In this document: positions 5,031 to 32,000 of the stretch, one piece after another
Position numbering within the stretch: position 1 is the first letter of the stretch
How the letters are laid out: each line of letters starts with the position of its first letter
Origin: Candidatus Lokiarchaeum ossiferum
GTDB lineage: Archaea; Asgardarchaeota; Lokiarchaeia; Sigyniarchaeales; Promethearchaeaceae
NCBI GenBank assembly: GCA_025839675.1
Contig: CP104013.1
Coordinates: 960,001 to 992,000 of the forward strand
Length of the DNA stretch: 32,000 nt
Direction of reading: 5' to 3'
Made by a program: the position numbers and the translations under genes
Notes under the pieces: model-generated
The model's database searches: none
Seen by the model: only the letters and a program-made list of their open reading frames with translations
Told to the model about the DNA's origin: nothing

Positions 5031-5840
5031 ATGTTTGTAATCATCCCTGAATTAAAAAATACCTTCATTGGATTAATTTATGAAACGTTTATTATCCTTT
5101 TATTCGGTATACTCCTTATATTAATCGGTCGGCGGTTTAAACGGAGAAAAACTGAATACACTCGCAATATGTTCATCATTTTCTTGAGCTTCACAGTTGC
5201 AATCATTTTCTCTTGGCTTTCAAAACTGATTCTCTTAATTATGGAAGTTCCGAGTTTTGATTTTGTTGATCCAACCACGTCAGGATTCTTTATAATAGCC
5301 CGAATACTTCAATTTCGGGTCAGCTTCATACTAATGGTGGTGGGAGCATACTTTATCTATATTATGAAAGTGAAGATTTTCGAAGAAAAAGCGAACCCAA
5401 TGGAAAAGTGGATCGTTCGCATCCTATCTTTAATCACATTTGCCTATTCAATGGTTTTTGTTGAACAATCCAATGTGCTACTGGATGTAATTGCATTCTT
5501 GTTTGCATTTTTAACCTTGATGGTTGTGTTTATTCCTTTTACAATTGCATCATTCAAAATGAGAAAAAGTATCAAGGGAAAAGTCTATAAAAATGCCGCT
5601 TTTTCTCTTGGCATTATGGGAATATGTTTTATTCTTATTTTATTTAATTTTCTCTTGGATCGATTATGGATGATGATTTTTAATGATGATGGATACACCT
5701 TTTTCTATTTTACTGCTTGGGCAATGGGGATTTTAGGAGCCATCACGGCATATATTGGTTATATTCGTCCTGAGCAACAACAAAAACTGATTCAAACCAT
5801 GTCTCAAAATCGAGATGATAAAATTATTGAGGATGAATAG
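5031..5840 (+). CDS. Seven-TM integral membrane protein, function unknown
   Basis: 269-aa ORF with an ATG start. By hydrophobicity I count seven helices. Basic clusters (RRFKRRK, KVKIFEEK, KMRKSIKGK) fall on alternate loops, implying an N-out/C-in topology. The C-terminal tail is polar. Confidence 0.8.
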   Translation: MFVIIPELKNTFIGLIYETFIILLFGILLILIGRRFKRRKTEYTRNMFIIFLSFTVAIIFSWLSKLILLIMEVPSFDFVDPTTSGFFIIARILQFRVSFILMVVGAYFIYIMKVKIFEEKANPMEKWIVRILSLITFAYSMVFVEQSNVLLDVIAFLFAFLTLMVVFIPFTIASFKMRKSIKGKVYKNAAFSLGIMGICFILILFNFLLDRLWMMIFNDDGYTFFYFTAWAMGILGAITAYIGYIRPEQQQKLIQTMSQNRDDKIIEDE

Positions 5841-7610: not shown

Positions 7611-8414
7611 ATGAAAAAAATTCTTATCTTATATGGGAGTCCAAAGGGAAAAGGAAATACTTCAAAGATAGCTCAACTGTTTATGCATGCTTTAGATATT
7701 CACAGAGAAAATGAATATGTAGAATTTTATTTGAAGGATATGAATATTGGATTATGCAAAGGTTGTATGGCATGTGTTACCAAAGGAATAGAAAAATGTC
7801 CATTAAATGATGATGTATCTATGATAATTACGGAAATCTTAAATTCTGATGGTGTCATACTTGCATCCCCGAATTTTACTGGAAATGTTCCATGGTTGGT
7901 AAAGAATTTCTTTGATCGGATGTGTTCCTTTGCCCATCGACCAATTTTCTTCAATCAACCACTTGCTATAGTTACAACTTGTGCTGGTATTGGATTGGCA
8001 GATTCCTTGAAAAATCATTCTGAACTACCTAAATATATTGGATTTCATCCTATTACTAAACTAGGTGTTAAAACCCCTCCTCATTTCTCATTTAAGAAAA
8101 TCAATCAAGCCATTCAAAAAAAAATTGAAAAATCAGCAAAATCTTTCCACCAATCTCTAATCTCAAAACAACCAAAATTCAATCTGGATTCTCTGATTTT
8201 TTATCAAATTTTTAAGAATATTATTCCTCTCCTTAGAAATTACTTCTCCAAAGATTTTAGCTACTGGAATGAACAAGGCTGGTTTTCCAAAGACAAAACG
8301 TTTTTTGTTTCATTCAAAGGAAAGAAATTACAAAAAATCCTCTCTCAATTTATTGGAAAAATGGCAGCAAGAAGTGTGGAAAAAGAACTGGTTCAAATAA
8401 AATCCAGTTCTTAG
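7611..8414 (+). CDS. Iron-sulfur flavoprotein (Isf)-like, NADPH-dependent FMN reductase / flavodoxin-fold protein
   Basis: The ORF is open from 7506, but the ATG at 7611 gives the canonical N-terminus MKKILILYGSPKGKGNTSKIA and is preceded by AGGGGAAG. The compact cysteine motif CKGCMACVTKGIEKC (C-x2-C-x2-C-x7-C) resembles the 4Fe-4S site of Methanosarcina Isf. The motif LASPNFTGNVP is typical of the fold. Confidence 0.85.
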   Translation: MKKILILYGSPKGKGNTSKIAQLFMHALDIHRENEYVEFYLKDMNIGLCKGCMACVTKGIEKCPLNDDVSMIITEILNSDGVILASPNFTGNVPWLVKNFFDRMCSFAHRPIFFNQPLAIVTTCAGIGLADSLKNHSELPKYIGFHPITKLGVKTPPHFSFKKINQAIQKKIEKSAKSFHQSLISKQPKFNLDSLIFYQIFKNIIPLLRNYFSKDFSYWNEQGWFSKDKTFFVSFKGKKLQKILSQFIGKMAARSVEKELVQIKSSS

Positions 8415-24529: not shown

Positions 24530-26746
24530 TCAATTGGAAGTTTGAAAACTTACTTGTTGACACATTAGGCTTATCTTCTCAGTATATTTGGCAAATTCTT
24601 CTCTTCCATATTCAGAGATGTCAACAAATTGGAGAAATCGATCTTGATATTCTTCATCTTTAATAATCCACCCCTTTTTCTGTAGCACTGAAAGATGATA
24701 GTCTAAATTTCCTGATGTTAACTGCACTTTATTTTTCAAATCGGTCCAATTCATCCGTCCATAATCATACAAACAATAAAGAATATTGAAACGGTGTGGA
24801 GCAGTAATTAAATCATTTTTCTCTAAAATTTCTTGACTAAATTCTTTTTGTTTAATCAAGTTATCAGAATCCTTCACAATTTCGATTACTTTTTTAATAC
24901 TAAAGGGTAAACCTTTCGATTTTAACAGTTCTTGTAAAAGGACAATATCTTGCGAAAATCTCTGTAAATTTTGCTGCGCTTCATACGTATTTCCTTCCAA
25001 AACATAATAAATCGTCTCAGTACCTAGCCGGTTCATAATTACAGTATTGTTGTCAAATTTTATTCGGTCTACAGAGTTGGACTCGAATTTTTCCCGAATT
25101 GAATGAATATCTAAATTAATTTCCTTCGCATCATCAATAGTCGAATAGAATTTTAGATTTGAATCGTCATTATCTGACACAATTTCTAACAATTTTGAAG
25201 TTTCAATCGAGTTTTCAAAAGAATCAATTTCTTTGGTCTTCAAGGTTAATTGTAAAATATCATCAATTGATGCAAATTTAAGACGATCGGAGATCTCAGA
25301 TTGATGATTTTGAAAATCGGTCCATTTATCATAGTATTGTAAAAATTTATCATATTCATGGGATATTTTACGTTCTAATCGGACTAAATCATATTTACGT
25401 GCAATTCGCTGACCCATTATAAAGTTTTTTTGCGCTCGGTCAAAATTAAATGTAATTAAGTCAAATTTAGCTTGCAATAATTTAATTTCAGCTTTCAATT
25501 CTTGCGAATTACATGAATTGGCGATGCTTTCTAATTTTTCGAGCAATATTTTGATCTCATCTAAAATATATTCTTCGTTTGATTTAGCCAATTCTTCAAA
25601 TAATAACTCACAATATTTTAGATGAAGAGGAGGATCATTTTGAAGGTCTTCGATCTTCATTAGATTGCGGAGAATATCGCCAGCTCTCACGATATTCCGT
25701 GAACCGCCTTTACTTTTTAAAAATAAAGCATGGGCAAAATCATATATTAGTTTAACTCGGCGATTATCATCCGTTTTTGCAATCTGTTCTAGCTCTTTAA
25801 AATACATTTCTGCTGCTTCGTAATCTTTTTGGAGAGTAAAATTTTCGACAATCTTGAAATAAGCACCTGCAATATTGAGATTATTCCCCAATTTTTTGAC
25901 AAGCTTATAACCATGTTGAAAATAATCCATGGATTTCGGAAGATTCCCTTTTTGCATATAAATCTCCCCAATCGCATTAGAGAAGGCTCCCAATAAATAT
26001 TCATTCTTGATTTCTTTAAGGATATCAAGACTTTGCTGGTAGTAATCTAAAGCAATATCTAATTCACCTAGGGTAGAATAAATTTTGCCTGTATTTCCCA
26101 AACAATAGGCTAACTGGTTAAAATTTTTTGTTAATTTTGAATGTTCGATCGATTTTTTGTAGTATCGAATTGATTTCAGTAATTCTCCTTTCAAATAATA
26201 AGCAACACCCAAATTATGATAAACTTCTCCCAATTCATATTTCAAGCCATACTTTTCACAAATTTCCAACCGCTTTTGATTACTCTCTAAGAGTTTATCT
26301 TTATGTAAGTGTTGATAATGATATAAGGATGACAAATAGTAGAAGTGATTATATAATAAGTCTCTCTCTTGCTGTGTACTTTCTATATCGCTCAAAATAA
26401 CTTTCTTAATTTGTTGAATAGATTCAAAACATTCATCATTTTTCCCAAGACGAAATTCTGCAGTTCCTTTTGCTGTGAGTGATTCAACAAGCATTAATGT
26501 ACTGTTTCCCTTTATAGCTAAGGTAAGAGCTTTTTCCGCTAAATCTAAGGCTTCAAGGTATTGATTCAACTTGTTAAGGGCCTTACTTTTTAAAATAAAA
26601 AACTCACATTGATCAACTGGGGATAATTGATCGAGTTCTTGAATTTTTTCAAGTTTAGTCAAAACAGCTTCATGTCGCTGTTCCATGGAACATTGCCGGG
26701 CTGCTTTAAGAAGCTGATTTTCGTTGTTTTTTTCGCCAAAATTCAT
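24530..26746 (-). CDS. Large TPR-repeat protein with a C-terminal winged-helix DNA-binding domain
   Basis: 738 aa. The N-terminal roughly 330 aa carry TPR_12-like repeats (YHNLGVAYYLKGELLKSIRYYKKSIE, LGNTGKIYSTLGELDIALDYYQQSLDI, IGEIYMQKGNLPKSMDYFQHGYKL). The C-terminus is PHRFNILYCLYDYGRMNWTDLKNKVQLTSGNLDYHLSVLQKKGWIIKDEE, a wHTH of the MarR/PadR-like type. Confidence 0.9.
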   Translation of the reverse strand: MNFGEKNNENQLLKAARQCSMEQRHEAVLTKLEKIQELDQLSPVDQCEFFILKSKALNKLNQYLEALDLAEKALTLAIKGNSTLMLVESLTAKGTAEFRLGKNDECFESIQQIKKVILSDIESTQQERDLLYNHFYYLSSLYHYQHLHKDKLLESNQKRLEICEKYGLKYELGEVYHNLGVAYYLKGELLKSIRYYKKSIEHSKLTKNFNQLAYCLGNTGKIYSTLGELDIALDYYQQSLDILKEIKNEYLLGAFSNAIGEIYMQKGNLPKSMDYFQHGYKLVKKLGNNLNIAGAYFKIVENFTLQKDYEAAEMYFKELEQIAKTDDNRRVKLIYDFAHALFLKSKGGSRNIVRAGDILRNLMKIEDLQNDPPLHLKYCELLFEELAKSNEEYILDEIKILLEKLESIANSCNSQELKAEIKLLQAKFDLITFNFDRAQKNFIMGQRIARKYDLVRLERKISHEYDKFLQYYDKWTDFQNHQSEISDRLKFASIDDILQLTLKTKEIDSFENSIETSKLLEIVSDNDDSNLKFYSTIDDAKEINLDIHSIREKFESNSVDRIKFDNNTVIMNRLGTETIYYVLEGNTYEAQQNLQRFSQDIVLLQELLKSKGLPFSIKKVIEIVKDSDNLIKQKEFSQEILEKNDLITAPHRFNILYCLYDYGRMNWTDLKNKVQLTSGNLDYHLSVLQKKGWIIKDEEYQDRFLQFVDISEYGREEFAKYTEKISLMCQQVSFQTSN

Positions 26747-26931: not shown

Positions 26932-28644
26932 TTAACTTTCTATTTCCTCTATAGGAATTTTTCTTGTTTTATCCATTACTTTTTTCAATTTATCGCCTAA
27001 TTTTTGATAAACTGAGTATCCATAAAGAATTGTAACTAAAAAAAAGAGAGTTCCTTGAATAATATGAATCCGGCAAAAATTTATTAATGCAGTGTTCGGA
27101 AAGCTAGGTTTTATACCATAAATTGCGATTCCTTCAAAGATTTTTGTTCTATTTCCTTCATTAAGAAATCTTTGATAATAAGGAACAACAATATGATCAT
27201 TAAAGATGAATTGGCCCATAATATCTTTTTCAAAACTTGTTATATTGCAATAAAAGATTGAATTCCAACAAAATCTATGTTGAATTGATTTACTTATTTT
27301 TCCGAGATTCCCATTATCAATCATATAACCGTAGAAGGATGAAGTAACAGGTTGATGTTTTGAACTATAGCGATGAGCTTCGCCTCCAATAGGGTCAAAT
27401 GATGTTATTGCCCATAATGTATTGTGGTTATCGAGATGAAAACTACTAGCATTTATTATTTTTTTTGAGGAGATAAAAGAGAAATCGTTTATATTATAAC
27501 GAACATAAAACGTTGCTTTAGTTTTTTCATAAGAATTTATTCTCATAATCATATTGTAGCTATCATTTCGGATATCCAAATATTGAAATTGAATCAAATT
27601 TGCATCCAAAAATGGCATATCGCTTTCGTCAATTAGATTTTCAATCTCTTTGGGAATTGAAATGGATTGATTAAATTTTATTCCTAAAGAATTAATTGCT
27701 AGTAAATGAGGGATTCCATCATAGAAATTTATAAAATAATAACTATCGTTAGAATATTCAATTATTGTAGGTGTTGAATAAAAAATCCTTCTAAAGTCTA
27801 TAGTTAAAACATTCGTATATTCAAGTTGGGTAAGATCTTCATTCAGTTGAAAGTGGTAAATAGATGTTTGATTAGTTTCACGATTGGACACAGTTCCAAT
27901 TAAGGTTTGATTCTTCAAAATACATTCCCTATCATAGAAATCATCGGAAATATTTTGTCCTATCAATGAGAATTCACTAGAATCCTTATCGGTTTCAAAT
28001 AAAGCCCCATAATGTGTTTGTTCAAATTCATTCTTTTTGGTAGCAGTATTGAGTGTTAATCCCCCAATCAAAATGAAGGAACCACTAATAACTAGATAAG
28101 CTAAAATTATTCCTTTTGCTTCATTTTTTTCAATATTTTTGTTAGATTTCAAAGAATTTTGAGTGTCCTTAATTGTATTCTTAAATAGTGATTTAACACG
28201 TCTCGAAAATAGGAAAAATAGAAGCACAAAACAGTTTAAAATAAAATATATTATGTTTAGAATGAAACTCACCGTGGTATTGTTGGAAATACTACTAAAA
28301 TTTGTGATAATATCGATCATTTGGTTTAAATCATATGAAATGAATAAACCAACCCAAATAAAATTCTGAAAGATTAAAATGAATCGGCCTATCATATTTT
28401 TGTTTGAAATAGAAATTCCAAGAATAATGAAGAAAATAAATATCACAGGTAGCATAAAATTGATTTCTAAATAAAGAAAATAATAAAAAAGCTGTTGTTG
28501 CGAATATTCTTCAGTTGGTTGCAAAATAGCAAAGAGTAAATTTCCTTGAAAAAGTATAAAACAGAAGATTAATCCAAGAATTCCAATGATTATATAAAAT
28601 CTGGCAACGATCTTTACGATCATTTCTGTCTCTTTTTTTGACAT
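26932..28644 (-). CDS. Polytopic membrane protein with a large extracytoplasmic domain, function unknown
   Basis: 570 aa. The first 200 aa contain 4-5 TM helices. A roughly 330-aa Asn/Ser/Tyr-rich soluble domain with sequons follows, then a final TM helix (GTLFFLVTILYGYSVY) and a basic tail. Confidence 0.8.
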   Translation of the reverse strand: MSKKETEMIVKIVARFYIIIGILGLIFCFILFQGNLLFAILQPTEEYSQQQLFYYFLYLEINFMLPVIFIFFIILGISISNKNMIGRFILIFQNFIWVGLFISYDLNQMIDIITNFSSISNNTTVSFILNIIYFILNCFVLLFFLFSRRVKSLFKNTIKDTQNSLKSNKNIEKNEAKGIILAYLVISGSFILIGGLTLNTATKKNEFEQTHYGALFETDKDSSEFSLIGQNISDDFYDRECILKNQTLIGTVSNRETNQTSIYHFQLNEDLTQLEYTNVLTIDFRRIFYSTPTIIEYSNDSYYFINFYDGIPHLLAINSLGIKFNQSISIPKEIENLIDESDMPFLDANLIQFQYLDIRNDSYNMIMRINSYEKTKATFYVRYNINDFSFISSKKIINASSFHLDNHNTLWAITSFDPIGGEAHRYSSKHQPVTSSFYGYMIDNGNLGKISKSIQHRFCWNSIFYCNITSFEKDIMGQFIFNDHIVVPYYQRFLNEGNRTKIFEGIAIYGIKPSFPNTALINFCRIHIIQGTLFFLVTILYGYSVYQKLGDKLKKVMDKTRKIPIEEIES

Positions 28645-29075
28645 ATAACTTAAACGTAGTATAAACTAAATTTAAATTTTTTTCAATGGCTAACTTATTT
28701 TTATAGTTTTTAGAGAAAACTAAACAGAATCAGATAATGAAATTATTAATAAAAAAACAGAAATTATGGAGTTTAATTAATTAGTTTTTGGCGACTCTCG
28801 AGGGGAATCTTTCTCTAAGTCTGGCATTGTCAGATAGCCATTCTATATAGATTTTTAATATACTGTCAGCATGGGATTATATTGATATTAAAATTCCTAA
28901 ATTTAATGTTTTGAAACAATTGAATTACTTTTCAGCTTCAATCAAATCCATGATCACTTGTTATTTGCTACTAAATCACAGATATCAGCTGATTATTTTA
29001 GGAAACTTACCGGTACCAATTTCTCAAGGCTTGGAAAAAAAATGATTAAGGTGGATAAAAAATCATGAACAATGA

Positions 29076-29372
29076 ATTGGGTATCTCAATCTTCCATTAC
29101 ATACAATTCCAACTTCATTTACTCCTTCAATATTTGAACGCTGGTTATCTTCACTAGAATTGCTTGCAAGATATTTTCCATCATTTCCAGAAATGTATCA
29201 TGAATCAATAAAGTGGTTGTGGAATCAGCAAATTAGTCCTGGTTTATGGGATTTTGGGAGAAGATATGTAGGATCTACATCATTTCCTTTATCGACAGAT
29301 TGGAGAACAAAAAATAGAAAATTTCATGACTGGAGCGCACGAATGCTCTTTCTTTTTGTTTCAATAGCCTAA
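29076..29372 (+). pseudogene. Probable remnant (C-terminal fragment) of an alpha/alpha-toroid (prenyltransferase / terpene-cyclase-like) gene
   Basis: This frame is open for 99 codons from 29076 but has no ATG; the track starts it at TTG 29160. It contains WLWNQQISPGLW, which fits the QW-repeat pattern [FYW][LIV]xxxQxxxGxW. Upstream (28.8-29.07 kb) are shorter stop-free stretches in other + frames, interrupted around an A8 run at 29034-29041. A hairpin AGCTAA/TTAGCT plus a T9 run follows at about 29483-29515. Confidence 0.3.
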
Positions 29373-29618
29373 TTAAAGCATAGTTAACGCGAAAATAGCT
29401 GTTTTCAAAGTAAATCGATCCTAATTCGAGTAAGGAATAAACGGATTGGGAGACTCATATCCAAGACCCATCTCCTTGGCAATAGCTAAAAGATTTCTTA
29501 GCTTCTTTTTTTTTATATATTAGAATATTTTACCTTATTAGCTATATAAATCAGTTTAAATATTTCATCTTGATTCATATGTAATAATTTTTAAAATCAA
29601 TTCTATTATTATTAAATT

Positions 29619-30407
29619 ATGCAAATGGGATCCGTACCTTTTTCCATCATAATTGCAAAATTTGATGATATCAAAGGTCCAATTTGCCTATTTGCACAAA
29701 AAAAAAATTTCTGTAATTTCCTTGGTAAACCATGCGATGAGATAACTAATAATTGGATTATGGATTCGTTTCAAATAAAAAAAGATATCTTCATTTTCGA
29801 TGATACAGAATATTTTATCCAAGGAATTTCAATACATTCGGAAAATAAAGAAGTTAGAGGATTTAAAGATAGATACGCTATTCTAATTCGATCTGAAAAA
29901 AAATTGGGAATTTTAAAAAAAAAAATTATTAACTTAATAAAAAATGACTTTTTGAAGCTAATAGATACAAAAAAAATTGACAAGTTAAATTTATTTGTTG
30001 GTTTTGCAAATAAATGGACAGAAAAATTACAAAATATGGGAAGTATTACAGATATATTAGAAAAAGATGAAGAATTAAGAAAAGCTAAACATGAATTGAA
30101 AGAAACGAAGCAAATTTTTAAGCAAGCAAGTGAAAAATTTATTATCCAATACTTCGGAGGTCTCTTATCGAAAATGTTAGATAAAGAGGTAAAATCATCC
30201 CAAGGATTAATATATTTATGCCTTAAAGAAGCATTTAACAACAATAACAAGATAAAATTAGATTTCGCAAGCCTTAAGGAGATCTTTTTTAATAATTTGG
30301 ATGAAAAATTAATTTCATTAAATTTCACTAACCATGATTTAATTATTAATTCGCTTATTGATGAATTAAGACAACATCAATCATTATTGATGATGATGAA
30401 CATATAG
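29619..30407 (+). CDS. Hypothetical protein: N-terminal longin/roadblock-like alpha-beta domain plus a K/E-rich coiled coil
   Basis: 262-aa ORF with an ATG start. Predicted by eye, the first roughly 115 aa give strand FSIIIAKF, strand PICLFA, helix EITNNWIMDSF, strands DIFIFDDTEYFIQGISI and RYAILIRSE, then helix LGILKKKIINLIKNDFLKLI. A coiled-coil-like segment follows (DILEKDEELRKAKHELKETKQIFKQASEKF). The antisense ORF 29771..30328 is F/S/L-rich, which is an artefact of A-rich codons. Confidence 0.8.
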   Translation: MQMGSVPFSIIIAKFDDIKGPICLFAQKKNFCNFLGKPCDEITNNWIMDSFQIKKDIFIFDDTEYFIQGISIHSENKEVRGFKDRYAILIRSEKKLGILKKKIINLIKNDFLKLIDTKKIDKLNLFVGFANKWTEKLQNMGSITDILEKDEELRKAKHELKETKQIFKQASEKFIIQYFGGLLSKMLDKEVKSSQGLIYLCLKEAFNNNNKIKLDFASLKEIFFNNLDEKLISLNFTNHDLIINSLIDELRQHQSLLMMMNI

Positions 30408-30421
30408 AGTGTGAGAAACTA

Positions 30422-31171
30422 TTGACAGATATATTAACTATAGTAGTAATGGGGGCAATTTTCTTAGCAATATTAAGTGCTTTCAGTTTAGGACTTTTTA
30501 TGACAATAAAAGCACTTCAAACTGAATACTATGATATAATTTATTATGGAATTGGTATTTTCTGTATGGGTTTACTCTATATATTTGAATTAAGTGGTTT
30601 GAGATTTTTTCAAGAAACTGTAAAAGTCATTGGATTGTTCTTCTTCTTAATATTTTGCAAGAAAAGCTTTTATAATGAAAAATCACCAACTGTTTTCACT
30701 CTCCTATATATATATCATTTCATCCTTCTTTTTATTAATCCAATTTTGAGTTTAAACTATGATAGATTTGCCATTATAATTAATCTCTTTTTTGGTTCCA
30801 GTTTAATGTTTATTTTTTTATTAATCTCTATTGGAGCATGGGTCGACTATAAGAAAATAAAAGTACTAAATGTTGAACCTTTTCTTAAGATAAGATATTT
30901 ATTAGTCAGTATGGCGAGTTTTCTATTTATAATAACTGGTAGTTCAATTATAATTGGGCACATTTTCCGTAAATATGGTAGTGATAACATTTATAATGTG
31001 ACAGAATTGATAACTATTTTTTCAGCACTTTTGGCTTCTATAGTTTTTTATTTAGCATTTGTAGGACCGAAGAAATTTAGAAAAATCTTTAATCGAACAT
31101 ATAAATCAATAGATATAGATTACAATGGCTTTATCGAGCAGGAAATAATAGGAGATTTATTAGATAAATAG
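30422..31171 (+). CDS. Six- to seven-TM integral membrane protein, function unknown
   Basis: 249-aa ORF starting at TTG 30422, 14 nt after the preceding stop; ATG 30449 is an alternative. Hydrophobic helices run throughout, with basic loops (DYKKIKV, PKKFRKIF). The architecture and C-terminal motif resemble the 5031..5840 protein. Confidence 0.75.
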   Translation: MTDILTIVVMGAIFLAILSAFSLGLFMTIKALQTEYYDIIYYGIGIFCMGLLYIFELSGLRFFQETVKVIGLFFFLIFCKKSFYNEKSPTVFTLLYIYHFILLFINPILSLNYDRFAIIINLFFGSSLMFIFLLISIGAWVDYKKIKVLNVEPFLKIRYLLVSMASFLFIITGSSIIIGHIFRKYGSDNIYNVTELITIFSALLASIVFYLAFVGPKKFRKIFNRTYKSIDIDYNGFIEQEIIGDLLDK

Positions 31172-31185
31172 AAAAATCAATTCCA

Positions 31186-32000
31186 TTAATATAATGGAGG
31201 GTTTTTTTGCAGTATTAGATTTTTTTGAAAAATGGTGAAAATGCTTGTTTTAAAAATTGAAATGCCTTGGTCAATTGGGACTAAATCCAATACTTTATTT
31301 AATATTTGTTGATTTAAAAAGTCGTTTGAGTATTTCTCTTTATCCAACCCAGGATCATATTTATGCAAGAACAAATTCAATTCAATTTTTAATTTATCTA
31401 CGTGAATATTTTTTAATATAATTTCAAAATAAGATAGAGATTCTTCATAGCGATCAGTATCTTGAATATCTAATACATAGATTATTTTGTCTATGTTTTC
31501 TAGGACTTCATCAGGTTTATTTGTGAATAAATCGCGATAAACAACTTGTCCTCCAAATTCATGGTATATTACCTCAGGTCTATATTTGAATTCCATATTA
31601 AGATCATAAAGGATAGAAGACATATGCTGTTTTCCTTCAGTGGGTTTTAAATTCTGATTAATAAATGCAAGTAGATTTTTTTTACCTAAAAAAGAAAGCA
31701 AAATTGAAGTTTTCCCACTTTTATCTAATCCCATTAGAAGAATGTTTTCTTGGTTTTTAGTTTTTTTTGAAAAAAGAGACTCTTGAGTGGAAATAAACGA
31801 TTCTAAATTTTCAAAAAGGGAATAAATTTGTTTATTCCTTACCATTATATATTTCCGCGTTCCAGATTTTTTAGAACTAATAATTCCTGCATTTTTTAGG
31901 ATTTTTATTTGTTTAAAGGTAGTAGATCGACTACGCCCTATTTTTTGCTCAAGTTCTCCAATAGTTAGTGTACCCTTCTGAAGAACCGATAAAATTTCGA
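31186..32000 (-). CDS. Winged-helix domain fused to a Rag/Gtr-like (Arf-clan) small GTPase; the N-terminus lies beyond the window
   Basis: G1 is ILLMGLDKSGKTSI, G3 is EFGGQ, G4 is LFLHKYD (HKxD as in RagA HKMD), and the G5-like motif is FKTSIF (compare RagA FRTSIWDE). IIYVLDIQDTDRYEESLSYFE parallels RagA [20 protein letters not shown]. My hand translation of the minus strand over 31846-32000 found no stop and gave EILSVLQKGTLTIGELEQKIGRSRSTTFKQIKILKNAGIISSKKSGTRKYI, directly in frame with MVRNK. That segment is an ArsR/MarR-like wHTH. Confidence 0.85.
   Translation of the reverse strand, partial: EILSVLQKGTLTIGELEQKIGRSRSTTFKQIKILKNAGIISSKKSGTRKYIMVRNKQIYSLFENLESFISTQESLFSKKTKNQENILLMGLDKSGKTSILLSFLGKKNLLAFINQNLKPTEGKQHMSSILYDLNMEFKYRPEVIYHEFGGQVVYRDLFTNKPDEVLENIDKIIYVLDIQDTDRYEESLSYFEIILKNIHVDKLKIELNLFLHKYDPGLDKEKYSNDFLNQQILNKVLDLVPIDQGISIFKTSIFTIFQKNLILQKNPPLY

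Follow-up and report, generated by a model that had tools for sequence, protein, structure and literature searches.

A three-gene locus of Candidatus Lokiarchaeum ossiferum as a candidate membrane-to-DNA module: a GP-motif longin protein, a seven-helix membrane protein and an ArsR-Rag-like GTPase fusion

The final 2.4 kb of a 32,000-nt stretch of Candidatus Lokiarchaeum ossiferum DNA (assembly GCA_025839675.1, contig CP104013.1, positions 960,001 to 992,000 of the forward strand; hereafter, the window) carry three genes that encode a longin-type protein (gene 1), a seven-transmembrane (7TM) protein (gene 2) and an ArsR-type winged helix-turn-helix (wHTH) domain fused to a Rag-like GTPase (gene 3). 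The folds, domain identities and homologies of the three products, and the conserved linkage of their families, are established here. Because the three genes recur in several orders and as fusions, comparative evidence makes it very probable that they act in a single signalling pathway leading from the membrane to gene expression. Our preferred reading, to which we give a probability of roughly 0.55, is that they constitute one membrane-to-DNA module in which the 7TM protein would be the input, the longin protein would be a GTPase-activating protein (GAP) and the Rag-like G domain would set operator binding by the wHTH. A sequence-only reading of the same DNA had suggested a functional link from adjacency, and that interpretation is supported as far as computation reaches.

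Gene 1 (NEF87_000794) occupies 29619-30407 on the + strand, starts with ATG and encodes 262 aa. It is separated by a 14-nt spacer (30408-30421, +) from gene 2 (30422-31171, +), which starts with TTG and encodes 249 aa. After a second spacer of exactly 14 nt (31172-31185) comes the end of gene 3 (NEF87_000796; protein P0002), which is convergent with gene 2 and runs on the - strand from 31186 to beyond the window end. The listed gene 3 open reading frame (ORF) comprises 219 aa from an internal ATG, and its frame is open through the last base of the window; since the full product has 290 aa, its initial 20 codons are missing from the window and, like the promoter, fall past base 32000. All three ORFs and the two 14-nt spacers had been placed at these positions by the sequence-only reading. 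The spacer between genes 1 and 2 has the same length in the orthologous loci L002 and L003, where it contains GAGG. A scan of window positions 28000-32000 against Rfam returned zero RNA families, and a scan for bacterial promoters and terminators performed no better than on shuffled sequences.

Domains of the three proteins

The gene 1 product has three parts. Its N-terminal longin domain (aa 1-140; 29619..30038, +) was assigned from the topology of an AlphaFold2 (AF2) model, from Foldseek matches and from conservation. A single long helix (aa 145-187; 30051..30179, +), delimited by DSSP of the model, forms a coiled-coil-like linker, and a helical C-terminal domain, here termed the adaptor domain (aa ~175-262; 30141..30407, +), ends in HQSLLMMMNI and was recognised from its homologues elsewhere. 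The AF2 model, computed with a 36-sequence alignment as input, has a pLDDT of 93.4 and shows the order β-β-α-β-β-β-α-α (strands 8-16 and 20-23, helix 45-50, strands 57-61, 65-75 and 83-93, helices 101-115 and 122-139), followed by the 43-residue helix and then by four short helices. The longin-type α-β order proposed by the sequence-only reading is thereby seen in the model; the coiled coil that it placed after this domain is not the whole of the remainder, which includes the separate conserved domain at ~175-262.

When the model was compared with the Protein Data Bank (PDB) using Foldseek, the best matches were NPRL2 in GATOR1, the longin portion of a roadblock-longin protein from Lokiarchaeota (TMt 0.54), Npr2/SEA, FLCN and FNIP2, with probabilities of ~1.0. 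The top of the list consisted nearly entirely of longin-domain complexes; the longin 8yqg_B is among the matches, and DENND10 and BLOC-3 appeared lower in the list. The 262-aa protein is a longin protein in this comparison and not one of an unrelated fold. The residues F15-D16...G20-P21 are invariant in the alignment of the gene 1 family, and the G20-P21 pair, invariant in 11 family members, stands at the start of strand 2. R80-G81 is nearly invariant and lies in the loop between strands 4 and 5 of the model, which makes R80 a candidate arginine finger. A GP motif has been reported as specific to longins of the GAP type and occurs in some Asgard longins (PMC12290439, a 2025 survey). Judged by the predicted structure, the gene 1 N-terminus is a longin domain of this GP-motif (FLCN/NPRL2/SMCR8 GAP) type. 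Beside the motif, an insert between strand 2 and helix 1 (29685-29735) contains three invariant cysteines, C23, C32 and C39, which could be a metal or redox site. P0087, a member of the gene 1 family, lacks the three-Cys insert.

The family was difficult to recover by sequence. A word-indexed homologue search with gene 1 returned gene 1 itself only, and with the 36-sequence profile it returned three proteins. A profile of the gene 1 longin domain recovered no longin from the PDB sequences, and two gene 1 homologues matched Pfam Folliculin below threshold (E=0.025 and 0.037, 14-15 bits; cut-off 23.3). Locus scans with the longin alignment found no loci in the genome and metagenome collections, in which the L. 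ossiferum genome is not included. Relatives were taken from an exhaustive phmmer search, which yielded 37 and revealed two independent modules. The N-terminal module (aa 1-157) is elsewhere flanked by transmembrane (TM) segments or fused to PAS-PAS, to an H-box-like helix or to an Arf-type GTPase. The C-terminal adaptor module, for which no database family was found, also occurs as stand-alone proteins of ~89 aa or as the C-termini of multi-TM proteins of 310-380 aa.

Gene 2 encodes a 7TM protein of an unannotated family, as characterised by AF2, Foldseek and alignments. The sequence-only reading had called it a protein with six or seven TM segments, and the AF2 model (pLDDT 85.9, pTM 0.83) contains seven long helices (3-34, 38-58, 61-84, 89-110, 113-147, 153-185 and 188-213) and one short helix (217-224). 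Conserved motifs are centred on F78 (FxKxxFYK), R158 (KRY) and W213/P216 (WxMPxxFK). With the N-terminus outside and the C-terminus inside, as predicted by the positive-inside rule, all of them lie on the cytoplasmic face, which fits a docking surface. Gene 2 matched no Pfam family. Its top 50 Foldseek matches in the PDB were G-protein-coupled receptors (GPCRs) and rhodopsins (TMq 0.27-0.60, most at least 0.41; E 7e-3 to 0.34), the best being class A GPCRs and microbial rhodopsins at TMq 0.45-0.60. The sequence has no DRY, no NPxxY and no TM7 retinal lysine. Sequence similarity is also lacking. We read the resemblance of fold as that of a generic 7TM bundle and not as homology; gene 2 is not a GPCR or a microbial rhodopsin.

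The adaptor domain connects the families of genes 1 and 2. Over its full length, gene 2 is homologous to the TM part of the adaptor-fused multi-TM proteins (hhalign 99.5%, E=4.8e-23; hmmsearch E=1.8e-15). Hence the domain at the end of the gene 1 product is, elsewhere, the cytoplasmic tail of gene 2 homologues. In addition, two stand-alone adaptor genes lie directly 3' of genes that end in the WxMPxxFK signature.

Gene 3 combines an ArsR-type wHTH, of which aa 21-90 are encoded within the window (31789..32000, -; Pfam, NCBIfam and PDB), with a Rag/Gtr-like G domain (aa ~100-290; 31189..31761, -; Pfam, alignment and PDB). The sequence-only reading had described a Rag/Gtr-like GTPase with a winged-helix domain. 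In Pfam, the G domain scored 60.8 bits with Gtr1_RagA (cut-off 22) compared to 40.9 bits with Arf, and RagA and Gtr1 were the best-matching eukaryotic PDB chains. Its motifs are a GLDKSGKTS P-loop, the switch-I Thr, ExGGQ, HKYD (G4) and KTSIF (G5). We take HKxD (G4) and TSI (G5) to be Rag-specific motifs. ExGGQ replaces DxxGQ in the 12 full-length relatives of alignment A6, in which the P-loop is normal, and H232-K233-x-D235 and K-T-S-I are kept in 12/12. The wHTH matched PF01022 and PF12840 on full-length P0002 and SmtB in the PDB (E=1.1e-9); on the incomplete window copy, the NCBIfam ArsR-type match fell below its cut-off. The domain retains the recognition-helix pattern of ArsR/SmtB. No Cys is conserved in the wHTH part of alignment A6, hence the wHTH is without ArsR-type metal-binding cysteines.

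Conservation of the trio and its unfused relatives

The three families adjoin in eight loci and in three gene orders (the window, L002, L001, L004, L005, L008, L175 and L095), a tally that counts the type-B membrane protein although it is not detectably homologous to gene 2. The order seen in the window, type A, recurs in L002, which comes from a metagenome-assembled genome (MAG) labelled Hodarchaeota and retains all three genes as well as the 14-nt spacer; identities to the window are 39% for gene 1, 27% for gene 2 (E=2e-19) and 43% for gene 3. In type B (L001, L004, L005 and L008), the wHTH-GTPase gene is followed by a gene for a ~280-aa polytopic protein and then by one for a 424-aa longin-PAS-PAS protein, the N-terminus of which is the gene 1 longin domain (E=6e-23 to 9e-20). 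L001 is a paralogous type-B trio of L. ossiferum itself, around NEF87_002160. In the third order (L175 and L095), the GTPase gene is convergent with a longin-PAS gene, beyond which the membrane gene lies in L175. Identities across the co-occurring families range from 27 to 45%. The grouping noted by the sequence-only reading is therefore conserved, with the same three genes in L002 and paralogous triads in L. ossiferum and on five other contigs. The fused wHTH-GTPases of the main tally have both partners at most two genes away in every case (6/6), and a neighbour-joining tree places the G domains of these six in a clade of their own.

Two other assignments were rejected in the fused loci. The type-B 281-aa membrane protein matched MASE3 at only 11%, and the 'HK' tag was an artefact that arose when single-linkage clustering joined proteins by their PAS and longin domains; these loci contain no kinase.

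Relatives of gene 1 outside these loci are also linked to GTPases. P0086 is a fusion of a longin domain with an Arf GTPase and is also convergent with a second GTPase gene. The gene for P0089 overlaps the start of that for a 488-aa Gtr1_RagA GTPase (L092:5538-7004), with a receiver and a histidine kinase next in the operon, and P0080 has a GTPase fragment ~700 bp away. In 5/5 gene 1-relative contexts examined, a small GTPase is fused or at most two genes away. The middle region of the 488-aa GTPase looks winged-helix-like by eye (KKGFLQIDKEKNYIQLSPKGF); Pfam does not recognise the region. Genes for ABC-2 transporters adjoin the module in L001, L002 and L005 and are four genes off in L004.

A wider system came to light when the wHTH-GTPase alignment was run against a single genome of each species, a scan that returned 80 loci from MAGs of Lokiarchaeia, Helarchaeota, Thorarchaeota and Hermodarchaeota. 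At 55/80 of these genome loci, and at 59/80 metagenome loci, the ArsR protein (111 aa) and the GTPase (~183 aa) are encoded by separate adjacent genes. Forty-one of the 55 split genome loci add a MASE3-PAS-HisKA-HATPase kinase downstream, a receiver-GP protein and a divergent Lrp/AsnC regulator, and the metagenome contigs repeat the pattern of the split operon. The unfused version is present on ~100 Asgard contigs (L009-L087 and L097-L174; for example, L015:5293-10101). The receiver-GP protein, an example of which is encoded at L015:9208-10101, has ~300 aa and consists of a receiver domain and a C-terminal domain with the motif WDDxxGP. This C-terminal domain matched neither Pfam nor PDB profiles. 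Its identification as a longin would accord with the NPRL2-like longin/two-component fusions of Liu et al. (10.1101/2020.10.19.343400) and is a lead only, because the similarity is not significant.

GTPases without an ArsR neighbour mostly adjoin small proteins that appear roadblock-like by eye and that matched no family in Pfam. At seven loci (L025, L027, L028, L042, L055, L061 and L068), a ~140-aa protein, roadblock/longin-like by eye and without a Pfam match, is encoded 3' of a Rag-like GTPase that has no ArsR neighbour. These GTPases are often preceded by a ~780-aa membrane-anchored protein whose C-terminus looks similar to the ~140-aa protein. Five loci (L010, L021, L028, L035 and L069) come from MAGs labelled as bacterial (Nanopelagicaceae, Deferrimicrobium), yet carry Asgard-type GTPase genes; L010 holds a full split operon and L035 an ArsR-GTPase pair. 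These are probably mis-binned Asgard contigs.

Candidate operators, mechanism and rival explanations

Within 12 kb, L002 carries three copies (5393-5412, 8107-8126 and 8382-8401) of a perfect 20-bp palindrome, ATATTAGAATATTCTAATAT, compared to 0.01 expected. One copy lies 60-80 nt upstream of an ABC-2 transporter operon that is divergent from the longin gene. The other two precede the wHTH-GTPase gene (by 41-60 nt) and a glyoxalase-family gene (by 47-66 nt), and both of these copies abut or overlap a TATA-like sequence. From its sequence and placement, the palindrome is a candidate operator that may mark a regulon. A half-operator candidate in the window, ATATTAGAATATT (29517..29529, no strand assigned), equals the first 13 bases of the L002 palindrome and precedes gene 1 by ~90 nt. 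The window contains no other match, and chance would yield one there (49/100 shuffles); the match is not significant alone and only its position is suggestive.

Other motifs precede the type-B and split genes. A ~30-nt invariant block, CATAyATTTAAATGTTTsGATATwTkGACATT, is present upstream of 4/4 type-B wHTH-GTPase genes (alignment A8; L001:5875-5915, L004, L005 and L008), and TTTAAATGTTTG recurs ~100 nt downstream of it. Paired repeats containing ATTAAT (for example, ATATTAATAAGGAATTATTAATAT) were counted in the 220 nt upstream of the ArsR genes of split loci and were found at 18/55 (for example, L084, L038 and L053), compared to a shuffle maximum of 9, a count that ignores kinship among the loci. 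The sequence-only reading had proposed transcription control that depends on nucleotide state. This proposal gains support from the unfused ArsR and GTPase pairs and from the L002 palindrome.

In the proposed module, the gene 2 7TM protein would be the membrane-embedded input or sensor and would hold the gene 1 protein through the adaptor domain of the latter. The adaptor is elsewhere part of the 7TM polypeptide or the product of the next gene. A gene 1 protein held in this way would have its longin domain at the membrane. The longin domain may then act on the gene 3 G domain, most likely as a GAP like NPRL2 or FLCN and with R80 as its candidate arginine finger. Whether the palindromic operators are occupied by the fused ArsR-type wHTH, which is presumably dimeric, would depend on the nucleotide state of the G domain. 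Such operators would stand at the promoters of the module itself and at efflux or detoxification genes close by. In the operons that contain a kinase, phosphorylation may be the input to an otherwise identical scheme. The physical contacts, an activity as GAP in preference to exchange factor or anchor, the signal sensed and the nucleotide dependence of DNA binding are what we infer.

Several results weigh against this module. The Foldseek E-values are marginal both for gene 1 (~1e-3) and for gene 2 (best 7e-3); no Pfam longin model scored above threshold, and gene 1 had no Pfam match, Folliculin and NPR2 included. The gene 3 G domain is without the roadblock domain that organises eukaryotic Rags and ends ~15 residues past G5, so that we call it Rag-like and not a canonical Rag. 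The type-B 281-aa membrane protein was rejected as a gene 2 homologue (BLAST; hhalign 0.8%), and membership of the receiver C-terminal GP domain in the gene 1 longin family is not supported statistically, its motifs being colinear but the hhalign probability only 2.9%. Finally, the 32-kb window contains no full copy of the palindrome, the gene 3 promoter lying past the window end.

The main rival uses the same parts and differs in the role of the longin domain, which would be a docking platform specific to one nucleotide state, or a guanine nucleotide exchange factor (GEF), that sequesters the wHTH-GTPase at the 7TM protein until a signal releases the regulator to DNA, much as anti-sigma factors or membrane-tethered regulators do. 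In its favour, GEFs and scaffolds make up the majority of longin and roadblock platforms (PMC10933270), a membrane tether for the longin domain would be supplied by the adaptor and the long helix, and the gene 3 G domain retains its own catalytic Gln in ExGGQ. However, the GP motif is reported to be absent from GEF-type longins (PMC12290439), and in gene 1 it is invariant and accompanied by a nearly invariant Arg. We regard this rival as rather unlikely.

The gene 3 wHTH bears on a second alternative, in which the output is not transcription. The wHTH would here be a dimerisation or protein-binding substitute for the Rag roadblock, and the GTPase would regulate the membrane protein or a transporter directly. 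The absence of a roadblock dimerisation domain and the ABC-2 transporter genes beside the module (L001, L002 and L005; four genes away in L004) are in keeping with such a role. Against it, the wHTH retains the ArsR/SmtB recognition-helix pattern and matches SmtB (E=1e-9), most relatives encode it as a separate ArsR protein of 111 aa, and the palindrome stands at L002 promoters three times. These observations make a non-transcriptional output improbable. Chance adjacency, or a shared chromosomal neighbourhood without joint action, could draw on the many GTPase and longin paralogues in Asgard genomes and on surveys that report GTPase and longin genes generally outside operons (PMC10933270), but it is contradicted by the comparative co-occurrence data (eight loci in three orders at 27-45% identity, fusions in both directions and a GTPase fused or at most two genes off in all five gene 1-relative contexts examined) and is very improbable.

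Relation to known systems and neighbouring genes

The closest eukaryotic parallel to the proposed module is with the Rag GAP complexes (GATOR1, composed of NPRL2, NPRL3 and DEPDC5, and FLCN-FNIP). In common with these, the locus pairs a GP-motif longin with a Rag/Gtr-type G domain, NPRL2 and FLCN are among the best structural matches of gene 1, and the setting is a membrane beside a polytopic protein. In contrast to them, the locus has no DENN/NPRL2 C-terminal domain, no roadblock on the GTPase, no Ragulator and no TOR, and no second longin subunit was seen in it. Its output is a fused DNA-binding domain, its genes are clustered, and its longin carries the three-Cys insert and a new C-terminal domain. 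That the locus preserves an archaeal version of the Rag-GATOR1/FLCN switch, with a 7TM receptor, a catalytic GP-longin GAP, a Rag-like G protein and a DNA effector in place of TOR, is possible but doubtful. If true, the partnership of longin GAPs with Rags would predate eukaryotes and would have begun as a membrane-to-transcription pathway, and the locus would be a prokaryotic case of coupling between a 7TM protein and a G protein.

Within Asgard archaea, NPRL2-like longins fused to two-component domains have been described (Liu et al.), and the GTPase partners of GP-motif longins are posed as an open question in PMC12290439. Genome layout seldom pairs Asgard GTPases with their regulators, according to a 2024 structural survey (PMC10933270). 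Gene 1 belongs to the same longin class, its relatives being fused to PAS-PAS and H-box-like helices and lying beside kinases and receivers. In contrast, the partner GTPase, the ArsR link, the 7TM family and the adaptor domain are not reported by Liu et al. or in PMC12290439, and none of the four was found in the literature searched. No paper in that search links Asgard GTPases to ArsR domains, and an Arf-family preprint makes no mention of HTH domains or operons. The novelty claimed by the sequence-only reading for a locus of this kind should be read more narrowly: NPRL2-like longin/two-component fusions in Asgard archaea and prokaryotic modules of small GTPase, roadblock protein and wHTH were already described.

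Such modules are known from the CvnA-D conservons of Streptomyces and from MglA group 3, which has a receiver-wHTH protein (PMC4316618). They likewise cluster a membrane sensor, a roadblock-superfamily protein and a small Ras-like GTPase, and for group 3 a transcriptional output through the wHTH was predicted. A membrane sensor, a roadblock/longin-superfamily protein and a small GTPase are encoded together in the window and in L002, L001, L004, L005, L008 and L175. Whereas the bacterial modules use MglA-type GTPases and MglB roadblock proteins, those described here use a Rag-like GTPase-wHTH fusion and a GAP-type longin. Unlike the conservon, the window locus has as its proposed sensor a 7TM protein without a kinase; the unfused relatives do carry one.

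Further parallels concern single elements. As in signalling by GPCRs and heterotrimeric G proteins, a seven-helix bundle (predicted N-out and C-in, with a short helix) is encoded beside a G protein; unlike in GPCR signalling, a small Rag-like GTPase serves as the G protein and any coupling would pass through the longin protein, and sequence similarity is lacking. The locus shares with ArsR/SmtB systems an ArsR-type wHTH, a candidate palindromic operator overlapping a TATA-like sequence and efflux or detoxification neighbours, but the wHTH of the module has no metal-binding cysteines. With CodY, a GTP-sensing winged-helix repressor, it would share the control of DNA binding by a guanine nucleotide. 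In contrast to both, it has as nucleotide sensor an entire G domain of the Ras superfamily, either fused or encoded by the next gene.

By gene order or fusion, the locus and its relatives give explicit pairings of GP-longin with Rag-like GTPase, of 7TM protein with adaptor domain and of GTPase with ArsR wHTH. As these pairings occur in a cultured Asgard archaeon, the origin of Rag GAP signalling becomes open to direct test, for which a small set of purified proteins and a single DNA probe would suffice. The analysis also defines two unannotated protein families, the 7TM family and the adaptor domain, and uncovers a widespread Asgard operon in which a two-component system is joined to a small GTPase and a transcription factor.

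Elsewhere in the window, the region upstream of gene 1 (26932-29618) encodes a 570-aa protein with hydrophobic N- and C-terminal segments and no family match. It is separated from gene 1 by ~970 AT-rich nt that contain neither a convincing ORF nor a match to Rfam. Positions 23385-26746 (-) encode a 314-aa leucine-rich-repeat protein beside a 738-aa tetratricopeptide repeat protein with a C-terminal MarR/HTH_34 winged helix. Further upstream, 19857-21950 (+) encodes an EutA-like protein (Pfam E=1e-124) with an extra ~200 residues at its N-terminus.

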